Position numbers and translations under genes: made by a program
Source: an uncultured Gammaproteobacteria bacterium
GTDB taxonomy: Bacteria; Patescibacteriota; Microgenomatia; Levybacterales; GWA1-39-11
DNA length: 64,000 nucleotides
Direction: 5' to 3'
Assembly (NCBI GenBank): GCA_964409875.1
Contig: CAYPEN010000003.1
Span: 64,557-128,556, forward strand
The notes under the pieces: generated by a model
What the model was told of the DNA's origin: nothing
Seen by the model: the letters and a program-made list of their open reading frames with translations, nothing else
The model's database searches: none
Shown here: one piece after another, positions 2,614-63,424 of the stretch
How the letters are laid out: each line of letters starts with the position of its first letter
Position numbering within the stretch: the first letter of the stretch is position 1

Positions 2614-3631
<1,018 letters not shown>

Positions 3632-8737: not shown

Positions 8738-10137
8738 ATTTTTGGTGTTTGTTTGTAAAATTGGGTTTCTTGCTCAAAAGCGTGTCCAACTTGAAAAAGT
8801 AAAGATTCCGAAAAATGCGGGCCAACAAATTGGATTCCGATAGGAAGACTGTCTTTTGAAAAACCGGCGGGCACAGCAAGTCCGGGAACACCTGCTAAAT
8901 TTATTGTTACAGTTAAAGCGTCTGACAAGTACATTGCCAGCGGGTCATTCGCTTTTTCGCCAAATTTCCATGGTGGAGTAGGAGAGACAGGACTAACCAA
9001 AACGTCAACACTTTTAAATGCTTCATCGAAATCTTGTTTAATTAGTGTTCTTACCTGCATCGCTTTTTTGTAGTACGCGTCATAATAGCCCGATGAAAGA
9101 GTAAATGTTCCAAGCATAATGCGCCTCTTTGCCTCTTTACCAAAATGGCTTCTGTCATTTCCGTACCGTATCCCATCATACCGCGCTAAATTTGAAGAAA
9201 CTTCGGATGGCTGGATGATGTAATATACGGCAATCCCCTCATCTGTATGAGGCAGCGAAACTTCGACAATTTCTGCCCCAAGTTTTTCAAGAGTTTTGAG
9301 TGTTTTTTCAAGAGTTTGTTTTACATCCTCAGACAAACCACTCGAAACGAATTCTTTAGGTACTCCAATTTTCAGCCCTTTAATTTCTTTTCCGATATTT
9401 ACGGTGTAATCTTCTTTTATTCTGTCTGCTGCTGTCGAATCGTACCCGTCATAGCCTGAGGTAATGTTTAAAATTTTTGCGCTATCCTCAACTGTCCTTG
9501 AAAAATGGCCAATACTGTCCAATGATGAAGCCATGGAAATAACGCCATATCTTGAAACCAAGCCATATGTCGGTTTGAGTCCTACCGTATTTGTGAATGA
9601 TGCGGGAAGTCGGATAGAGCCACCGGTATCAGTACCGGTAGAAAATGGTACCATGCCAGAGGCGACCGATGCGCTCGAGCCAGATGACGAGCCGCCGGGA
9701 ACATAATCTATATTCCAGGGATTTAATGTATTCCCAAAATCACTGTTTTCACCGCTGGAGCCGTGCGCCCACGCGTCGTGGTTGAGTTTACCCAAAGATA
9801 TAGCTCCTGCTTCTTCCAATTTTGTAACAGCCGTTGATGAGTAGGGAGGGATGTAGTTTTCTAACACTTTTGAGGCCGCAGTTGTTCTCACTCCTTTTGT
9901 TAAAAACATGTCTTTGATTCCAAAAGGAATTCCATGAAGAGGGTTTGTTGCCTCTTTTCCGTCAAGCTCTTTTGCTTTCCTTTTTGCGTTCTCGGAGTCG
10001 ACGGTTAGAAATGCGTTTAGTTGCGGATTGAGTTTTTCTATTCTTTCTAAATATGCATTTACCACTTCGCCAACCGAAAACTTCTTGCTTTTATATCCTT
10101 CAATAATGTCTGTAATGGTAAAGTTATGTATTTCCAT
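8734..10137 (-). CDS. gatA: Asp-tRNA(Asn)/Glu-tRNA(Gln) amidotransferase subunit A
   Basis: Amidase signature GGSSSGSSASVASG. Overlaps gatB by 4 nt. Confidence 0.95.
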   Translation of the reverse strand: MEIHNFTITDIIEGYKSKKFSVGEVVNAYLERIEKLNPQLNAFLTVDSENAKRKAKELDGKEATNPLHGIPFGIKDMFLTKGVRTTAASKVLENYIPPYSSTAVTKLEEAGAISLGKLNHDAWAHGSSGENSDFGNTLNPWNIDYVPGGSSSGSSASVASGMVPFSTGTDTGGSIRLPASFTNTVGLKPTYGLVSRYGVISMASSLDSIGHFSRTVEDSAKILNITSGYDGYDSTAADRIKEDYTVNIGKEIKGLKIGVPKEFVSSGLSEDVKQTLEKTLKTLEKLGAEIVEVSLPHTDEGIAVYYIIQPSEVSSNLARYDGIRYGNDRSHFGKEAKRRIMLGTFTLSSGYYDAYYKKAMQVRTLIKQDFDEAFKSVDVLVSPVSPTPPWKFGEKANDPLAMYLSDALTVTINLAGVPGLAVPAGFSKDSLPIGIQFVGPHFSESLLFQVGHAFEQETQFYKQTPKI

Positions 10138-15907: not shown

Positions 15908-16099
15908 GCGTTTATAATAGCACAAAAGACACTATTATTTGCTGTTTTGAGGCCATTGACTGACGATGTTCTTGTTGGTAGAATAGTTGAACCAAAGATT
16001 GAAGATTTTGGGGTGAAGCCAACTATTGCGCTACGCGCTGGGGTGGCATTCAAAGCTCTGAAAGAGCTTTTCATCCACCCCAAAAAATTTTATTTTTTT

Positions 16100-24090: not shown

Positions 24091-24339
24091 AATAGCGATG
24101 TTACGTATTTGATTGTTCATATTAGCGTTAAAAAAGACACGCGGGCAAACGTGTCATCCTATGAAGCTGCACTTTAGTGCATCTTCTAGCTCAGCTTTTC
24201 TGCATGTGCTCATCATGTCCAACATTAGTTTGCAAAAGCAATTCGAAGGACAAAAATAAACCACGATATAACTCGTGGTTAATATCACATGCTATAGGTT
24301 CTATTATATCAGAAATAGGGTATAATAGCTACTAATTAT

Positions 24340-24798
24340 ATGAAACAAATTAAACGTATCCCGGTCACAAAGGAGGGGTTCGAAAAACTCCAAAATGAGC
24401 TCAAAAGACTGCAAGCCGAGCGTCCAACAGCTGTCAAAACGCTTGCCGAGGCTAGAGCTATGGGAGACCTTTCAGAAAATGGGCTTTACACAGCAGCCAA
24501 AGCACGGCTTCGCTCGATTGATAACGAAATGTTTCGCCTTGAAATTCAGATAAAGCTTGCTGATATTCGCGAATCGGACAACAGAACAGTCGGCATCGGT
24601 TCAAAAGTTGAGGTTTCTCAAGAAGGGGCAAAAACAACCTATTACATAGTGGGTGATTATGAGGCAAATCCTTTAGAGAGAAAAATTTCCCAGCATTCGC
24701 CTCTCGGACGGGTTTTGATAGGGAAAAAAGCAGGAGATACCGTTCAATTTGAAGCTCCAAAGGGCATAATTTCCTACAAAATAGAAAAAGTTTCTTAG
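24340..24798 (+). CDS. greA: Transcription elongation factor GreA
   Basis: 152 aa with an N-terminal coiled coil and a C-terminal FKBP-like domain. A TATAAT -10 element lies at 24321-24326. Confidence 0.9.
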   Translation: MKQIKRIPVTKEGFEKLQNELKRLQAERPTAVKTLAEARAMGDLSENGLYTAAKARLRSIDNEMFRLEIQIKLADIRESDNRTVGIGSKVEVSQEGAKTTYYIVGDYEANPLERKISQHSPLGRVLIGKKAGDTVQFEAPKGIISYKIEKVS

Positions 24799-25367: not shown

Positions 25368-25592
25368 CTATTCTGAAAGTAACACAGCTTCGTATCCGGT
25401 TTTTTTGACAGTTTCAAGAAGAGTATTTGTGTCGACTTTTCCATCTTCAAATTCAACCTCAGTTATCTGTTTTGCGTAGCTTGTTTGGGCTTTTTTTACT
25501 CCCTCTACATCTTCAAGATCAAAATCTATGTTCATCGCACATGATGAACAGTGCATGCCCGTAATTTTCAATTTCTTTGTCACATTGCTCAT
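25368..25592 (-). CDS. copZ: Copper chaperone CopZ (HMA domain)
   Basis: GMHCSSC metal-binding motif; 74 aa. Confidence 0.85.
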   Translation of the reverse strand: MSNVTKKLKITGMHCSSCAMNIDFDLEDVEGVKKAQTSYAKQITEVEFEDGKVDTNTLLETVKKTGYEAVLLSE

Positions 25593-26749
25593 ATTACTTC
25601 AATCACCCCCCGGTACATCCCCATTGCGCAGGTGAATGGGATTCTCCCTGCCTCTGTTGGTGTAAAAGTTATGGTTTGAGTTTCGTTTGCGGCAAGATTG
25701 CGGGCAATGCCAAGAGAGGGAATTCGGAAAGCAGATGAACAGCTGTAAGCATCAATACTCTTAAGGGTAAGGGTAACCGTTTCACCTTTTTTGACACGGA
25801 TATAATTTGGGGAATAGCCCGAAGCGGTGATTTCAATAGTTGGACTTTGATTAATCGGAATTGTCTGTTGTACGTTTATCTGATTTGAAGAGGGAAGTTT
25901 TATCTTTTCACCAATTGCCTGCAAAGTTATCGGTGAGCCAAAAGCGGTAAGCGACCCATTAATTGCGCTAATTCCAAGATAGATAACAATAACTGCCGCA
26001 ATTTTGAAAAATTTTGTCTTGAATGACTCACCCAAAAGTGAAGTTACTGCTCCAATTCCAAAAAAGAGAGGTGTAGTCCCTAAAATAAATGCTGCCATGA
26101 TGAGACCTCCCATAAATACATTAGAGCTACTGATAGCCAATGCTTCCATAGCAAGGGTCGTTCCACAGGGGATAAATATGGTCATTGCCCCAAGCAAAGC
26201 CGGCGCAAAGAAGTCTTTGGACTTTGATTGGTTGCGGACAAGCCGGGTTAAGAACCGTGGAGGCTGGATAATGACGTACCGAAAAATAGGATGGATATTA
26301 AGTAAATTCATGGCAACAAGCACCATATAGACACCGGCTGCAAGTTGCATGAAGGCTTGAACTTTCCCGCCGATATTTAATGCCCCGCCAAAAGCCCCCA
26401 ATACCAATCCTAGAGCGGTATAGGCAACCAGTTTTGAGGCAAGAAATGCACCGGTTGCGATGAGAGCATGTTTGCCGACTTTTGAAGTGCTTGTTTCCTC
26501 CCGTGCAGCAATTATCGAGGCTAAAAGTCCACCCTGAACTGCAAGGCACGTGAGTCCTCCAACGGTTAGTCCGGTGATAAATATGACAAAAAGATTGATA
26601 TTTCCCGCTTTTGGTACAGGTACGGAAGGGAGAGTAGTTTGCGAGGGAGAATTTTGTAGGGTCGCAAGCATGAAAAGTAGATAGCCAATGAGTACAACGG
26701 CGGCAGCAAATACCCACAAAAGCATTTTGAGTGTTGATTTGTTTTCCAT
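25589..26749 (-). CDS. Polytopic membrane permease-like protein with C-terminal cupredoxin-like domain
   Basis: About 8 TM helices (TauE/DsbD-like fold). The C-terminal ~100 aa resembles the downstream cupredoxin_1 domain (FTCAMGMYRGVIEV compared with [14 protein letters not shown]). Confidence 0.6.
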   Translation of the reverse strand: MENKSTLKMLLWVFAAAVVLIGYLLFMLATLQNSPSQTTLPSVPVPKAGNINLFVIFITGLTVGGLTCLAVQGGLLASIIAAREETSTSKVGKHALIATGAFLASKLVAYTALGLVLGAFGGALNIGGKVQAFMQLAAGVYMVLVAMNLLNIHPIFRYVIIQPPRFLTRLVRNQSKSKDFFAPALLGAMTIFIPCGTTLAMEALAISSSNVFMGGLIMAAFILGTTPLFFGIGAVTSLLGESFKTKFFKIAAVIVIYLGISAINGSLTAFGSPITLQAIGEKIKLPSSNQINVQQTIPINQSPTIEITASGYSPNYIRVKKGETVTLTLKSIDAYSCSSAFRIPSLGIARNLAANETQTITFTPTEAGRIPFTCAMGMYRGVIEVI

Positions 26750-26751
26750 AA

Positions 26752-28989
26752 TTATGTTCTTGAAAGCTTGAGCCTTTTTAAGAGCAGTGAATTACTCACA
26801 ACTGAAATAGAGCTTGAGGCCATCGCCGCTGAGGCGAATATCGGATTCAGCAACAGTCCAAAGAATGGATAAAGGGCTCCCATAGCAACTGGTATCAATA
26901 TAATATTATAGCCAAAAGCCCAGAAGAGGTTAAGCTTTATAGTTCTCATCGTCTTTTTTGAAAGTTTTATGGCAGATGCGACGGAACGAAGATCGCGGTT
27001 AATAAGTGTAATGCCGGCTGTTTCTATCGCAACATCAGTACCACTTCCCATCGCAATACCGATATCTGCAGCAGCAAGCGCAGGCGCGTCGTTTATCCCG
27101 TCTCCCACCATTGCAACAACTTTTCCTTCGTTTTGAATTTTTCTGACTTCCTGCTCTTTCTCTTCCGGCAGAACTTCCGACAGAACTCTTTTTATCCCCA
27201 GGCTTTGGGCGATAGCCTCAGCTGTTCTTTTGTTGTCTCCCGTCATCATCACTACCTCAATACCTTTTTTCGTAAGCTCGTTTATTCCTTCTCTAGCGCT
27301 TTCTTTAACGGTATCCATAACAGCAATAAGTCCAAGAAGAGTTGTTTCGAATGCCAAAAACATAACTGTTTTTCCCTCTCTTTCTAAATTTTCGACATTA
27401 TCCAGATAGTTTGCGACTTTGACGCCCATACTTTCCATCAGTTTTCTATTACCAAAAAACACTTGTTTCCCGCTTATGACTCCTTCTACCCCGTGTCCCG
27501 GAATTGCTTTGAATTTTTCAACCGGAAGAGAGGGGATATTGTCACTTTCTGCCTTTTTCACAATGGCCTCAGCAAGGGAGTGCTCAGACCCTTTCTCAAG
27601 AGACGAGGCAACGCGAAGAACTGTGTCGGGTGGTGCATCGTGCGTGGGGATGATGTCTGTAACCTCAGGCTTACCGTTTGTGAGGGTTCCTGTTTTGTCA
27701 AAAATGATGGCTTTTACTTTGTGTGCTATTTCAAGGCTTTGTGCGTCTTTGATGAGTATTCCGTTCTGCGCCCCAATACCTGTCCCCACCATGATAGCGG
27801 TGGGTGTTGCAAGACCCATTGCACACGGGCAAGCAATGATAAGTACAGCAACCGTATTAAGAAGGGCATAGAGAAAAGCCGGAGAAGGACCGAATACGTA
27901 CCAAACGGCAAACGTTGCAATAGAAAGCATGATTACGATAGGTACAAAATAGGAGGATATGGTATCGGCAACTCTTTGGATAGGCGCTTTTGAACCTTGA
28001 GCATTTTCAACCAGAGTTATTATTTGTGCCAACATTGTTTGTCCTCCTACTTTTTCGGCTCTATAGGTAAAAGTACCGGATTTATTAAGAGTTGCCCCTA
28101 CAACGTTGTCCCCCTGTGCTTTGTCAACAGGTATACTTTCTCCTGTTATCATAGACTCATCAACCGCCGACTCGCCTTCCAGTATAACTCCATCAACCGG
28201 TATTTTTTCTCCCGGCCTGACTCTTACCACGTCCCCGATGATAACTTCGCTTATGGGAATATCAATTTCCTTGTCATCACGCATGACCCGTGCAGTTTTT
28301 GCTTGAAGTGAGAGGAGTTTTTTGATGGCCTCCGACGTACCAGCCTTTGCTTTCGCTTCAAAAAATCTCCCCAGAAGTATTAGGGCTATTACAATTGTAG
28401 CAACATCAAAGTAGGGCATCGGCTCTATCCCGACAGCGCTTATGACTTTTGGCATCAACGTAACTAATACCGAATATGAAAATGCAGCGGTCGTACCGAT
28501 CGCAACAAGAGTATCCATATTTGCGCTTCTATGGCGAAGAGAGGGTATGGTTGCCTTATAAAAGGTAAGCCCTGGCCAGAATTGGACGATAGAGGCTAGG
28601 GCAAGTTGCAGATAAAAATTCTTAAGGAAAAAAGGTGCAAAATCAATAAGCCCAGGGAAGCTTCCCCACAGTATAAGTAGTCCTATCGTAAGACTCACGA
28701 TAACTTTTAGGCGGAGTGACTTCAGTTCCCTTGCCTTCTCTTCTTGCTCTTTTTTCTCATCAACTTTTTCCCCTTCAATCATTGCTGTGTATCCGACTTG
28801 GGCGACCGCTGACTCCATTTGTTTTGGAGTGCAGGCAGAATCGTCATAGTTGACGGTTGCTTTCTCGGTTGCGAGGTTAACAGTTGCCGATTCGACGCCG
28901 CTAACTTTTGTTAATGCCCGCTCGAGCACCCTGACGCAGGACGCGCAGTGCATGCCTTTTATTGGAAATGTTTTGGTGACTTGAGCCAT
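26752..28989 (-). CDS. copA: Copper-translocating P1B-type ATPase
   Basis: N-terminal HMA (GMHCASC), CPC motif in TM6, and DKTGTLT phosphorylation site. Confidence 0.95.
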
Positions 28990-28990
28990 A

Positions 28991-29368
28991 TCACTTTATG
29001 ATTATCTTCCCGTGATACATATTCATGCCGCACGAGTATTTGAATTCTCCTTTCTTTTGGGGTGTTATCTCAACGGTAACCGTTTCATTCAGAGGAAGAT
29101 ATTTCCTTATCTTCAAATCGCCGAGCACTACTTCCTCAAGGCAACCGCTCGAATCTTTTCTGATGAAATTTAGTTTCGTAGTTTTACCCTTCGGTATGAC
29201 GACCGCTTCAGGGTTATATCCTCCCTCAACAATAATATCAACAGACCCATTAGCCACAACTTCTCTTTGGTCTTTCATGAGAAAAAACCAGTGGACAAAG
29301 CCTATTCCTAAAATACTTCCTACCAAAACTAAGATTTTATCTATTGGCATATTAGTCACCGCATTCAA
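28991..29368 (-). CDS. Cupredoxin-like (cupredoxin_1) domain protein, membrane-anchored
   Basis: 125 aa with an N-terminal TM helix and the C-terminal motif SCGMNMYHG. Confidence 0.7.
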
Positions 29369-29888
29369 TACTTTCTTTTTCTTTTTTTTCTATATATTGT
29401 TTGCTAACCGCGTCTTTTTCATGGGTTGTGGAATTACTACCAAGAAGTATGACCATGCTTTCATAAGGAGTAATCCTGGTGTTCTGGAAATCCTTTACCT
29501 CTTTGCCATTTACATATGCCTTTGCCTTTGAGTAGTCAATGGGGTAGTGGATATTGGTAAAAAGGTCGCGCCAGTAAGCTTGTTCACGCTCGACGTGCAC
29601 GAGGTCACCAACCTGGTCATGAAGATGCGCCTTTTCGGCTTGTATATCCTCATCACTGTGATTTCCCTTCACATCATCGCAAGGTTTTACTCTCATATAC
29701 TTAAAATCTGAAAAGTCTATTTTTTTGTCGTTTTGGAAGACGACGAAGCCTGCGTGATAGTGGATTTCTTTTGGTGTAGTGAGAAATTTGTATCCAAAAA
29801 ATCCCCCAATAACTATTCCTATCAGGAGTAACGTCCCAAAAACTGCAATAATATTCCTTTTTTTTAATAACCCCATTCTTTGTACCAT
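29352..29888 (-). CDS. Hypothetical membrane-anchored His-rich protein in the copper operon
   Basis: N-terminal TM helix and several His-containing motifs. No family recognised. Confidence 0.5.
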   Translation of the reverse strand: MVQRMGLLKKRNIIAVFGTLLLIGIVIGGFFGYKFLTTPKEIHYHAGFVVFQNDKKIDFSDFKYMRVKPCDDVKGNHSDEDIQAEKAHLHDQVGDLVHVEREQAYWRDLFTNIHYPIDYSKAKAYVNGKEVKDFQNTRITPYESMVILLGSNSTTHEKDAVSKQYIEKKEKESIECGD

Positions 29889-30505
29889 AGGCGCATTTGA
29901 TTTATCTCCTTTGTCTGTGAATCAATAATGTTTTGGGCAAGCTTTTTCATTTCCGGTCGTATTGTTCCGTTCTTAAGCATTGTTGCCATCATAACTGCCA
30001 TTTGGTGATGCGGAATCATCTCCTCTATAAATTCTTTATCAAAGTTTTCTGCCGATTTGAGTGACTCTGCGTCGATATCGCTTCCCATCATGCCCATGTG
30101 CATAGATCCGTTTCCTTGCATCATTCCATGCGTATCCATCACATCATTGTCTTCCGGTGGCTGCTTCCCGAACCATTCCTCATACCATCCTTTCATTTGT
30201 TCAATTTCTTTTGATTGGGCAGTGATGATATTTTGGGCGAGAGTTTTGATTTCACTGTGAGTTGCTTTTTCAAGAGCTGTTGTACTCATTGTAATTGCAT
30301 CTTTGTGATGAGGGATCATCTGTTCTATAAAATGGCTATCGAGTGCATCGGAATTCGTAATTCTATTTTCCTGTACAGTATTTTTTCCCCACATCATTTG
30401 TCCAAGGGAAGAATAACGACCGGAGGGTGGGGTTGGCAAAATAAGCCAAACAGCAAGGCCTCCAAGAATTGCGCCAATCACCCCATATGTTAGTTTTTTA
30501 TCCAT
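29864..30505 (-). CDS. DUF305 domain protein (copper-resistance associated)
   Basis: Two DUF305 repeats (IEQMIPHHKDAI... and IEEMIPHHQMAV...). Confidence 0.8.
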   Translation of the reverse strand: MDKKLTYGVIGAILGGLAVWLILPTPPSGRYSSLGQMMWGKNTVQENRITNSDALDSHFIEQMIPHHKDAITMSTTALEKATHSEIKTLAQNIITAQSKEIEQMKGWYEEWFGKQPPEDNDVMDTHGMMQGNGSMHMGMMGSDIDAESLKSAENFDKEFIEEMIPHHQMAVMMATMLKNGTIRPEMKKLAQNIIDSQTKEINQMRLWYKEWGY

Positions 30506-30507
30506 AT

Positions 30508-30783
30508 TTACTTATTGGTTCTTTTAAAAAGTGTTACGAGTTCTTCGGTTGCTTTTTCACTTTCACCGTTATGGAATTGGTGTGCAACGTGAGTTGAGAG
30601 ATGACGTTCCAAAAGAACCGTGTCAAGGCTTTTTAAGGAATTTTGTATAGCAAGGCTTTGGTTGAGGACGTCGACGCAATACACGTCATCCGTTATCATC
30701 TTTGAAAGTCCTTCCAGCTGGCCTTTGATGATGTTGAGGCGCTTCTGGGCTTTAACTTTGCCGTCTTCGTAGTGAGATTTCAT
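30508..30783 (-). CDS. csoR: CsoR/RcnR family metal-sensing transcriptional repressor
   Basis: 91-aa DUF156 fold with Cys-His-Cys ligand positions (YCVDV...HLSTHV). Confidence 0.8.
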   Translation of the reverse strand: MKSHYEDGKVKAQKRLNIIKGQLEGLSKMITDDVYCVDVLNQSLAIQNSLKSLDTVLLERHLSTHVAHQFHNGESEKATEELVTLFKRTNK

Positions 30784-30793
30784 TGTCTTATCG

Positions 30794-30812
30794 TATACCC
30801 CCCAGGGGTATA
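30794..30812. promoter_or_regulatory. Candidate CsoR operator: perfect 8-3-8 inverted repeat TATACCCC-CCA-GGGGTATA immediately upstream of csoR
   Basis: GC-rich core with AT-rich flanks, typical of CsoR operators. Located about 10 bp from the csoR start codon. Confidence 0.65.
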
Positions 30813-30971
30813 TGTCAAGACACGAAAAGTTTAGATATGAAAAATCAGGTGGAAATTTGAGATTGTAAATTTGTGACCAGGATATCCAGAATCTCGAACC
30901 AGAACAAATGCTTCTTGATTGGTACCAGATTTACAAAAAGTTAAAGTTATTTGTAAAAATTCTGAAGAGAT

Positions 30972-31514
30972 TTAAATTGACTCTAATTTTTCTTTAGAAT
31001 CTCTTTCAAGTTTTTCTCTTTGCTTCTCTGTTAATCCCATGCTTTTTGCAAAAAAATCATTTAAGCCTTCGTATACGATTTCTAATAACTGTAGCGTCTC
31101 TAGTTCTTTTGCGGGATTATTTCTATATTCCCTAATTTTGTCTTGATATGCACTCGGATGAGAAAAAATAACTCTTAAATCATTTAATTTGTACATTTTC
31201 CCAATTAATGCAGATTCTAAGAGATCTGATTCCTGGACTGACTTAACCTTCTTCGCAAAATCAGTGCTTGCGGCTAGTTGAGTAAATCTTTGCCTAAACT
31301 CTAATCGTTCTTCATCTGAAATAGACGTGTTATTAATACTGCTCAAAAGGTGGTTTGCCAAAATTATTTCTAAAGAAACTTCAGTTCTTGCATGAACGTG
31401 AAAAATCTTATGTCTAATCTCCTTTGTTTCTTCATCAGTATAAAGTGGGTCAATATCTTCCCAATTCTGGAGTTTGTTTAGCAGTTCTTGAATTTGCTCT
31501 TCTAGAGGGACCAT
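30972..31514 (-). CDS. Hypothetical protein (possible HEPN-like Rx4H motif)
   Basis: 180 aa, alpha-helical. Contains an RHKIFH motif. No family recognised. Confidence 0.5.
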   Translation of the reverse strand: MVPLEEQIQELLNKLQNWEDIDPLYTDEETKEIRHKIFHVHARTEVSLEIILANHLLSSINNTSISDEERLEFRQRFTQLAASTDFAKKVKSVQESDLLESALIGKMYKLNDLRVIFSHPSAYQDKIREYRNNPAKELETLQLLEIVYEGLNDFFAKSMGLTEKQREKLERDSKEKLESI

Positions 31515-31540: not shown

Positions 31541-31547
31541 TAGTTTG

Positions 31548-31619
31548 TGATCCGGCAGGGACTCGAACCCTGAACCCAAAGCTTAAAAGGCTTTTGCTCT
31601 ACCATTGAGCTACCGGACC
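31548..31619 (-). tRNA. tRNA-Lys (TTT)
   Basis: Minus-strand cloverleaf: acceptor GGTCCGG/CCGGATC, anticodon loop CTTTTAA. Confidence 0.9.
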
Positions 31620-63289: not shown

Positions 63290-63361
63290 GGGCGGCTAGC
63301 TCAATGGTAGAGCAATTCCCTCTTAAGGAATCGGTTCAGGGTTCGAGTCCCTGGCCGCTCA
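63290..63361 (+). tRNA. tRNA-Lys (CTT)
   Basis: Cloverleaf: acceptor GGGCGGC/GCCGCTC, anticodon loop CTCTTAA. Confidence 0.9.
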
Positions 63362-63424
63362 CCCAGCTAAGCTGGGTGGCAGCCCGCTTAGCGAGCTCAC
63401 TGTGATATTATCAATTAATGCACT

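Follow-up and report, generated by a model that had tools for sequence, protein, structure and literature searches.

A single question is raised by this locus: what is the function of a short palindrome that stands immediately in front of a csoR-family gene? On its plus strand, the window (the whole stretch of DNA analysed, 64,000 nucleotides long) reads TATACCCCCCAGGGGTATA at 30794-30812; this is a perfect 8-3-8 inverted repeat centred on CCA, as a sequence-only reading of the same DNA had reported when it proposed the site as a candidate CsoR operator. That proposal is supported by the published CsoR boxes, by conservation of the site before orthologues and before detached copper genes, and by a pattern scan of metagenomes. 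We put at about 0.88 the probability that the palindrome, judged from its sequence and setting, serves as operator for the CsoR-family repressor whose gene directly follows it.

The copper operon and its promoter

The genes around the palindrome all lie on the minus strand. Read on this coding strand, the palindrome, TATACCCCTGGGGGGTATA, is followed by CGATAAGACA and then by the ATG, at 30783, of a 91-aa open reading frame assigned to PF02583. The distance from the end of the putative operator to this ATG is 10 nt, in agreement with the spacing of about 10 bp claimed earlier. The features of the locus, of which the first three are predicted elements, are as follows.

30813-30818, minus strand: -35 hexamer TTGACA, directly abutting the operator (promoter scan and relatives)
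30794-30812, no strand assigned: putative CsoR-box operator core, TATACCCC-CCA-GGGGTATA on the plus strand and TATACCCCTGGGGGGTATA on the minus strand, containing TAC-N9-GTA
30790-30795, minus strand: -10 hexamer TACGAT, its first two bases being the last two of the operator (promoter scan and relatives)
30508-30783, minus strand: csoR-family repressor, 91 aa, PF02583 (Pfam, NCBIfam, homologue and structure comparison)
29864-30505, minus strand: DUF305 / CopM-family metallochaperone (PF03713, 150.9 bits; NF049983 CopM, 114 bits, cutoff 90)
29352-29888, minus strand: 178-aa predicted membrane-anchored protein, no family match, overlapping both neighbours
28991-29368, minus strand: Cupredoxin_1 domain protein, 125 aa (PF13473, 78.1 bits)
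26752-28989, minus strand: copA, P1B-type copper-exporting ATPase (TIGR01511 ATPase-IB1_Cu, 631.9 bits, cutoff 397)
25589-26749, minus strand: DsbD_2 transmembrane domain with C-terminal cupredoxin fusion (PF13386, 102.9 bits; PF13473, 58.6 bits)
25368-25592, minus strand: copZ-like HMA metallochaperone, the final gene of the operon (Pfam and NCBIfam)

It had been proposed that a csoR-family gene heads a tightly packed copper operon, and this holds: the genes match PF02583, CopM, CopA and CopZ, and are separated by gaps of 1-2 nt or overlap. The copper genes of the proposed list are present, but the list was one gene short, seven rather than six, the order being csoR, DUF305/CopM, the 178-aa protein, cupredoxin, copA, DsbD_2-cupredoxin and copZ, with the 178-aa protein between DUF305 and cupredoxin. 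A gene described as a permease is likewise there, and its product is the fusion of DsbD_2 and cupredoxin domains. The copZ-like gene is taken to be the last of the operon because the next gene is convergent. CopA has an N-terminal HMA domain, and its translation shows the motifs CPC, YN(x)4P and M(x)2SS. The 178-aa protein, for which no Pfam or NCBIfam match was found, is His-rich (HYH, HLH, HVE) and has homologues in two related copper loci, L001 (78%) and L026 (53%); it may be an uncharacterised copper-handling component. Upstream of the operon and on the same strand are a 180-aa open reading frame (30972-31514, minus strand, GC 0.33, no Pfam match) and a gene for tRNA-Lys(ttt) (31547-31619, minus strand). 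A tRNA-flanked genomic island was considered and is unsupported: att-like repeats of at least 12 nt are absent, and the GC content is similar (0.43 against 0.41). An Rfam scan of the window at gathering thresholds returned tRNAs only.

A scan for consensus promoters gave, on the minus strand, TTGACA (30818-30813), a 17-nt spacer and TACGAT (30795-30790), which match the consensus at 10 of 12 positions and constitute the best promoter match of the region scanned. The 19-bp putative operator fills the 17-nt spacer and overruns it by 2 nt into the -10 hexamer, so that it is embedded, between -35 and -10, in the promoter that serves the csoR-copA operon; a CsoR box is expected to lie in such a csoR or copper-efflux promoter. 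Both hexamers recur in related loci: in 31 aligned relatives the first five positions of the -35 are invariant and the sixth is A in 29, and a -10 of the form TA(T/C)NAT occupies the same position. Only 6 nt separate the -10 from the start codon. The A of the ATG is thus the seventh nucleotide after the -10, where transcription would be predicted to start; since it falls at this position, the mRNA is probably leaderless, a start judged from spacing only. Of 35 full-length relatives, 28 have the same 6-nt gap; measured from the motif, the ATG is 10 nt away in 28 of the 35 and 9-12 nt away in the others, which supports a conserved leaderless arrangement. Absence of a Shine-Dalgarno sequence was dropped as a sign of leaderless mRNA because most genes of the copper operon have a weak site of this kind or none, so that its lack is not diagnostic.

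Sequence of the site and its recurrence elsewhere

Palindromy by itself is weak evidence here and does not go beyond chance. Perfect 8-3-8 palindromes of any sequence number four in the window, compared with a mean of 1.29 and a maximum of 4 in mononucleotide shuffles of it; the other three are at 2533-2551, 16052-16070 and 63360-63378, the last of which begins at the 3' end of a gene for tRNA-Lys(ctt) (63290-63363). As such palindromes are not rare, the case rests on the specific sequence, on its position in the promoter and on its conservation. With respect to the first of these, TATACCCC-N3-GGGGTATA is found at this place only in the 64-kb window, even when up to three mismatches are permitted, with a chance expectation of 0.05 and a single match in 5 of 100 shuffles. 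A search for other copies had been suggested as a means of defining the regulon; within the 64-kb window none was found at three mismatches or fewer, and the regulon is not extended there. A relaxed scan (N4-N6 centre, up to two mismatches) returned 24305, 55475 and 55945, which have no intact pair of C and G tracts and were judged to be chance matches. That at 24305-24324, TATATCAGAAATAGGGTATA, is weakly operator-like (two mismatches, N6 centre, no C tract) and is found 16 nt upstream of the start of an open reading frame at 24340-24798 on the plus strand.

The specific sequence is that of known CsoR operators. CsoR boxes have been reported as TATACCCnnnnnGGGTATA in B. liaoningense and ATACCCCnnnGGGGTAT in C. 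glutamicum (PMC5057107). For Streptomyces, the consensus is ATATACCCCTNAGGGGTATAT, in which the TAC-X9-GTA dyad is essential, and two tetramers bind per DNA (PMC3902906). The site in the window fits all of these, as TATACCC-N5-GGGTATA, ATACCCC-N3-GGGGTAT and TAC-N9-GTA: it includes TATACCCnnnnnGGGTATA and ATACCCCnnnGGGGTAT exactly, and its 21-mer ATATACCCCTGGGGGGTATAC agrees with 18 of the 20 specified positions of the Streptomyces consensus. On the minus strand the TAC-N9-GTA inverted repeat is written TA-TAC-CCCTGGGGG-GTA-TA, with a C tract and a G tract around an unconserved centre of about 5 nt. The earlier statement that the site has the known architecture of CsoR operators was, on this evidence, sound.

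Related loci were collected by a scan of one genome per species, which gave 60 loci, essentially all from Patescibacteria (Levybacteria, Woesebacteria, Microgenomates, WWE3 and others). When the upstream regions of the full-length relatives are anchored at their start codons, they all show TTGACA-TATACCC-N5-GGGTATA-(T/C)NAT, then about 6 nt, then ATG. A match to TTGACATATACCC-N5-GGGTATA with at most three mismatches over 20 bases is present in 47 of 61 upstream regions (the window and the 60 loci), mostly with no mismatch or one. In the -35 and the arms there are about 2 bits of information, as against 0-0.4 in the flanks and 0.2-1.1 in the central N5; this profile comes from loci selected by the motif, which inflates the values within it, and the raw ATG-anchored alignment shows the same pattern. 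Neither the central N5 nor the DNA ahead of the -35 shows any relation from one locus to another. The synteny of csoR, DUF305, cupredoxin, copA, DsbD_2-cupredoxin and copZ is widely kept.

The loci in which the copper genes have become separated from csoR are informative. In L018, where csoR lies about 2.7 kb from cupredoxin-copA, a second complete promoter-operator unit, TTGACA-TATACCCCTAGGGGGTATA-TGAT, is found at 9007-9025, some 45 nt in front of the cupredoxin gene, and L088 similarly has a second copy (3241-3265) before its detached cupredoxin-copA. The element thus follows the copper genes and not csoR alone. No second operator was found at two mismatches or fewer in L007 and L015, where cupredoxin genes are also far from csoR. 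Five more distant loci (L055-L059; 43-48% identity, labelled Peribacteria or Nitrospiraceae) are without the TATACCC-N5-GGGTATA box; they share another conserved motif, (A)TAGGGTATAGGGGTA(T/C)TG(G/C)C(T/C)ATT, which follows a TTGAC-like -35 at about 20-60 nt before the gene for the csoR homologue and may be a variant operator. It should also be noted that many records of metagenome-assembled genomes (MAGs) titled 'uncultured Gammaproteobacteria bacterium' (L001-L031 and others) have csoR operons with 70-90% protein identity to those of Levybacteria and Woesebacteria MAGs, and with the same gene content and promoter architecture; these titles are probably placeholders or wrong taxonomy.

Metagenome contigs were also scanned for TTGACATATACCC-N5-GGGTATA as a DNA pattern only, with no protein information. 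At least 122 exact sites were found, in at least 120 stretches. Among the matches listed (122 sites), 106 have genes for CsoR, CopA, CopZ or related proteins within 1.5 kb downstream; the first downstream open reading frame in the matches listed encodes CsoR at 71 sites, CopA at 17, a DsbD_2-like protein at two, and a cupredoxin and CopZ at one each. Another 27 of the matches listed were classed as 'other', and 14 of these have CsoR, CopA or CopZ within 1.5 kb. By eye, several more of the 'other' sites precede truncated CsoR, HMA or YHS-type proteins. The 71 CsoRs among the matches listed comprise 58 with the classical C-H-C ligands (29-52% identity to the window protein) and nine with C-H-H, from which it follows that both types of sensor use the same promoter-embedded box. 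Exact matches also stand before genes other than csoR or copA in L076 (two sites), L072, L096, L141 and L172. As identified by eye, they encode a small YHS/TRASH-like protein, membrane proteins carrying the motif HCLTGCAIGE, a protein resembling thioredoxin and a Cys-rich peptide resembling metallothionein, the gene for this peptide being followed by csoR; it is possible that these genes are additional cargo of the CsoR regulon in other phyla.

The repressor, its metal and rival explanations

The 91-aa protein matches PF02583 (DUF156) over residues 10-88 with 76.7 bits (cutoff 22.8) and so has the fold of the family. Its closest solved relatives, at 45-53 bits, are those of Geobacillus (4M1P), Thermus (3AAI), M. 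tuberculosis (2HH7) and S. lividans (4ADZ), and these four best structural relatives are all copper CsoRs; InrS and FrmR score 25 and 23 bits (range 23-25). Among the NCBIfam models RicR is best (59 bits), followed by RcnR (36.8) and FrmR (29), every one of these scores being under the strict cutoff. Residue conservation was assessed over 120 homologues (73-91% identity) together with the window protein: all 121 sequences have Y35, C36, H61, H65, E81, R15 and Q42, and 118 have H4. Of the ligands Cys36-His61-Cys65 (MtCsoR numbering), C36 and H61 are present; position 65 is His, aligned with the His of Thermus CsoR, where a classical C-H-C site for Cu(I) has Cys. Judged by its sequence, the protein is a member of the CsoR family, a C-H-H variant outside the classical C-H-C subgroup. 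It also has the second-shell pair, which we take to be Tyr35 and Glu81 in MtCsoR, both residues being invariant throughout the 121 sequences. The genes for CopA and CopZ are in the same operon as csoR, and this synteny is kept in most of the 60 related loci. Second-shell residues are allosterically important in MtCsoR (PMC8643695). On the negative side of the comparison, the R57 Ala mutant of SlCsoR gave no signal in isothermal titration calorimetry (PMC3902906), and R57 aligns, in an alignment read by eye, with Ile18 of the window protein.

With H-C-H-H in place of a set that includes a second Cys, strict selectivity for Cu(I) is to be deduced from context only; the view of copper as the inducer is drawn from gene context and from the precedent of Thermus CsoR, and not from the ligand set. 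The only rival explanation with real weight concerns this point. It holds that the site is indeed the operator of this CsoR-family protein, and that a metal other than Cu(I), or besides it, acts as inducer: Ni/Co, Zn, Cd or Cu(II). The conserved H-C-H-H fingerprint (H4 in 118 of 121 sequences, H65 in all) is, in formal terms, the one that defines the Ni/Co sensor RcnR (PMC8643695), and the same set, RcnR's, has been linked to multi-metal binding by Thermus CsoR (PMC5057107). Citing Sakamoto 2010, that source reports for Thermus CsoR, whose ligands are the same, binding of Cu+, Cu2+, Zn2+ and Cd2+. The regulated genes are nevertheless specific to copper, namely those for a P1B-1 CopA that exceeds the TIGR01511 cutoff and for CopZ, CopM and cupredoxins, with no rcnA-like or Ni/Co efflux gene among them; the protein's scores are higher for copper sensors (59 bits for RicR, 45-53 bits for CsoR structures) than for RcnR (37), InrS (25) or FrmR (23-29); and it keeps the Y35/E81 pair of MtCsoR. 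Moreover, the x-C-H-H cluster 17 that contains Thermus CsoR has been classed with the copper sensors, in CopA/CopZ neighbourhoods (PMC8643695). A different or additional inducing metal is, on balance, improbable.

Could the palindrome act instead as an RNA hairpin, that is as a terminator, a stabiliser or a mask of the start codon on a transcript reading through from upstream, and not as protein-binding DNA? The minus-strand RNA of 30835-30770 folds at -21.5 kcal/mol (z = -4.25), the extended stem reaching the AUG, and the 180-aa open reading frame and tRNA-Lys gene are upstream on the same strand. This fold corresponds to an extended imperfect dyad at 30784-30822, with arms of 18 nt each (30784-30801 and 30805-30822) that are 83% complementary and whose outer parts, TGTCTT/AAGACA, reach the start codon. 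The outer arms are, however, absent from the closest relative, L001, and from all the others, and the outer stem is not conserved among relatives; the 39-bp dyad was accordingly rejected as a functional unit and is taken as a chance or strain-specific feature. Since the strong fold depends on these unconserved arms, a role as RNA is unlikely. The core arms, moreover, are invariant in sequence and do not covary: the changes found in them are mostly confined to one arm and uncompensated (L015, L041, L049), a pattern more in keeping with base-specific recognition by protein than with an RNA stem. A U-tract is lacking, and an intrinsic terminator was discarded for want of any terminator-like site in 30400-31100. 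The register of the element is fixed to the -35 and -10 and not to the upstream genes, which differ between loci, and the transcription start is predicted to be downstream of the element, which would mean that it is not transcribed from this promoter. We regard the hairpin as very improbable.

That the site is a chance palindrome, or belongs to an unrelated regulator, for example a MerR-type CueR or CopY, is scarcely credible: four generic palindromes against about 1.3 expected indicate that palindromy proves little, but chance is excluded by the conservation data (the element is kept in about 47 related loci amid unconserved flanks, and its at least 120 exact 20-base metagenome matches are overwhelmingly beside copper genes), the operon has no gene for a MerR-family protein or CopY, and its 17-nt spacer is optimal whereas MerR-activated promoters have an over-long -35/-10 spacer of 19-20 nt.

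The reading of the palindrome as the operator of the adjacent CsoR-family gene suggests the following scheme. In the absence of metal, CsoR would bind the TAC-N9-GTA dyad between the -35 and the -10 and block RNA polymerase; as the operator is in the spacer, the mechanism would be promoter occlusion. When copper rises, binding of metal at C36, H61 and H65, possibly together with H4, would release the repressor and the seven-gene operon would be transcribed; csoR is among these genes, which would result in negative autoregulation. This is a textbook arrangement and it says nothing new about how CsoR works. Almost no transcriptional regulation has been described in Patescibacteria (CPR), a search of the papers available for CsoR operators in CPR found nothing, and the locus provides a confident regulatory annotation at the level of sequence for a Patescibacteria genome, namely promoter, operator, probable transcription start and operon boundaries. 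The module TTGACA-TATACCC-N5-GGGTATA, reused before CsoR and CopA genes and with C-H-C and C-H-H sensors, is also useful as a pattern for finding copper regulons in metagenomes. A more far-reaching idea, tentative and in our opinion doubtful, is that the Patescibacteria clade of CsoR (invariant C36-H61-H65, conserved H4) recognises the canonical box of C-H-C sensors but has a different or broader metal chemistry (Cu(II), Zn or Ni/Co besides Cu(I)), and controls a leaderless, autoregulated copper operon with uncharacterised periplasmic or membrane parts (the 178-aa protein and the DsbD_2-cupredoxin fusion). If true, it would be a natural case of sensing chemistry having been swapped on an unchanged DNA-recognition module.

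Comparison with known CsoR-family systems

Iwig and Chivers are said to have described, in 2009, type 1 RcnR sites of the form TACT-G6-N-AGTA; what is invariant in the clade of the window is, in contrast, CCC-N5-GGG within TAC-N9-GTA and not a single G tract. E. coli RcnR has the same four-residue fingerprint as the window protein (PMC8643695), but the similarity is lower (36.8 bits, against 59 for RicR) and the gene context in the window is that of copper, not rcnA. The fingerprint of an RcnR-type sensor is found together with another kind of site and with no Ni/Co efflux gene. The likeness to Thermus thermophilus CsoR (3AAI; SSN cluster 17, x-C-H-H) is drawn from the protein and not from the operator: both have Cys-His-His ligands and an N-terminal His, and the Thermus protein, too, is the regulator of a copper operon with copZ/copA neighbours (PMC8643695, PMC5057107). 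The relation is distant, at 52.7 bits, which is similar to that with C-H-C CsoRs.

With the type 2 operators of Streptomyces lividans (csoR, copZA1 and copZA2) the site has in common TAC-N9-GTA, the C and G tracts, the variable centre and a location upstream of csoR and copper-efflux genes. Unlike them, it is exactly between a consensus -35 and the -10 of an operon of seven genes, probably leaderless, in which csoR itself comes first; the host, also, is a Patescibacteria genome, and the stoichiometry of two tetramers is a Streptomyces result. The C. glutamicum box is contained exactly in the window site. That of B. liaoningense is identical, letter for letter, to the clade consensus TATACCC-N5-GGGTATA, although csoR and cueA are divergent in B. 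liaoningense and the window has a single co-directional operon. The repressors of both these organisms are of the C-H-C type, whereas that of the window is C-H-H.
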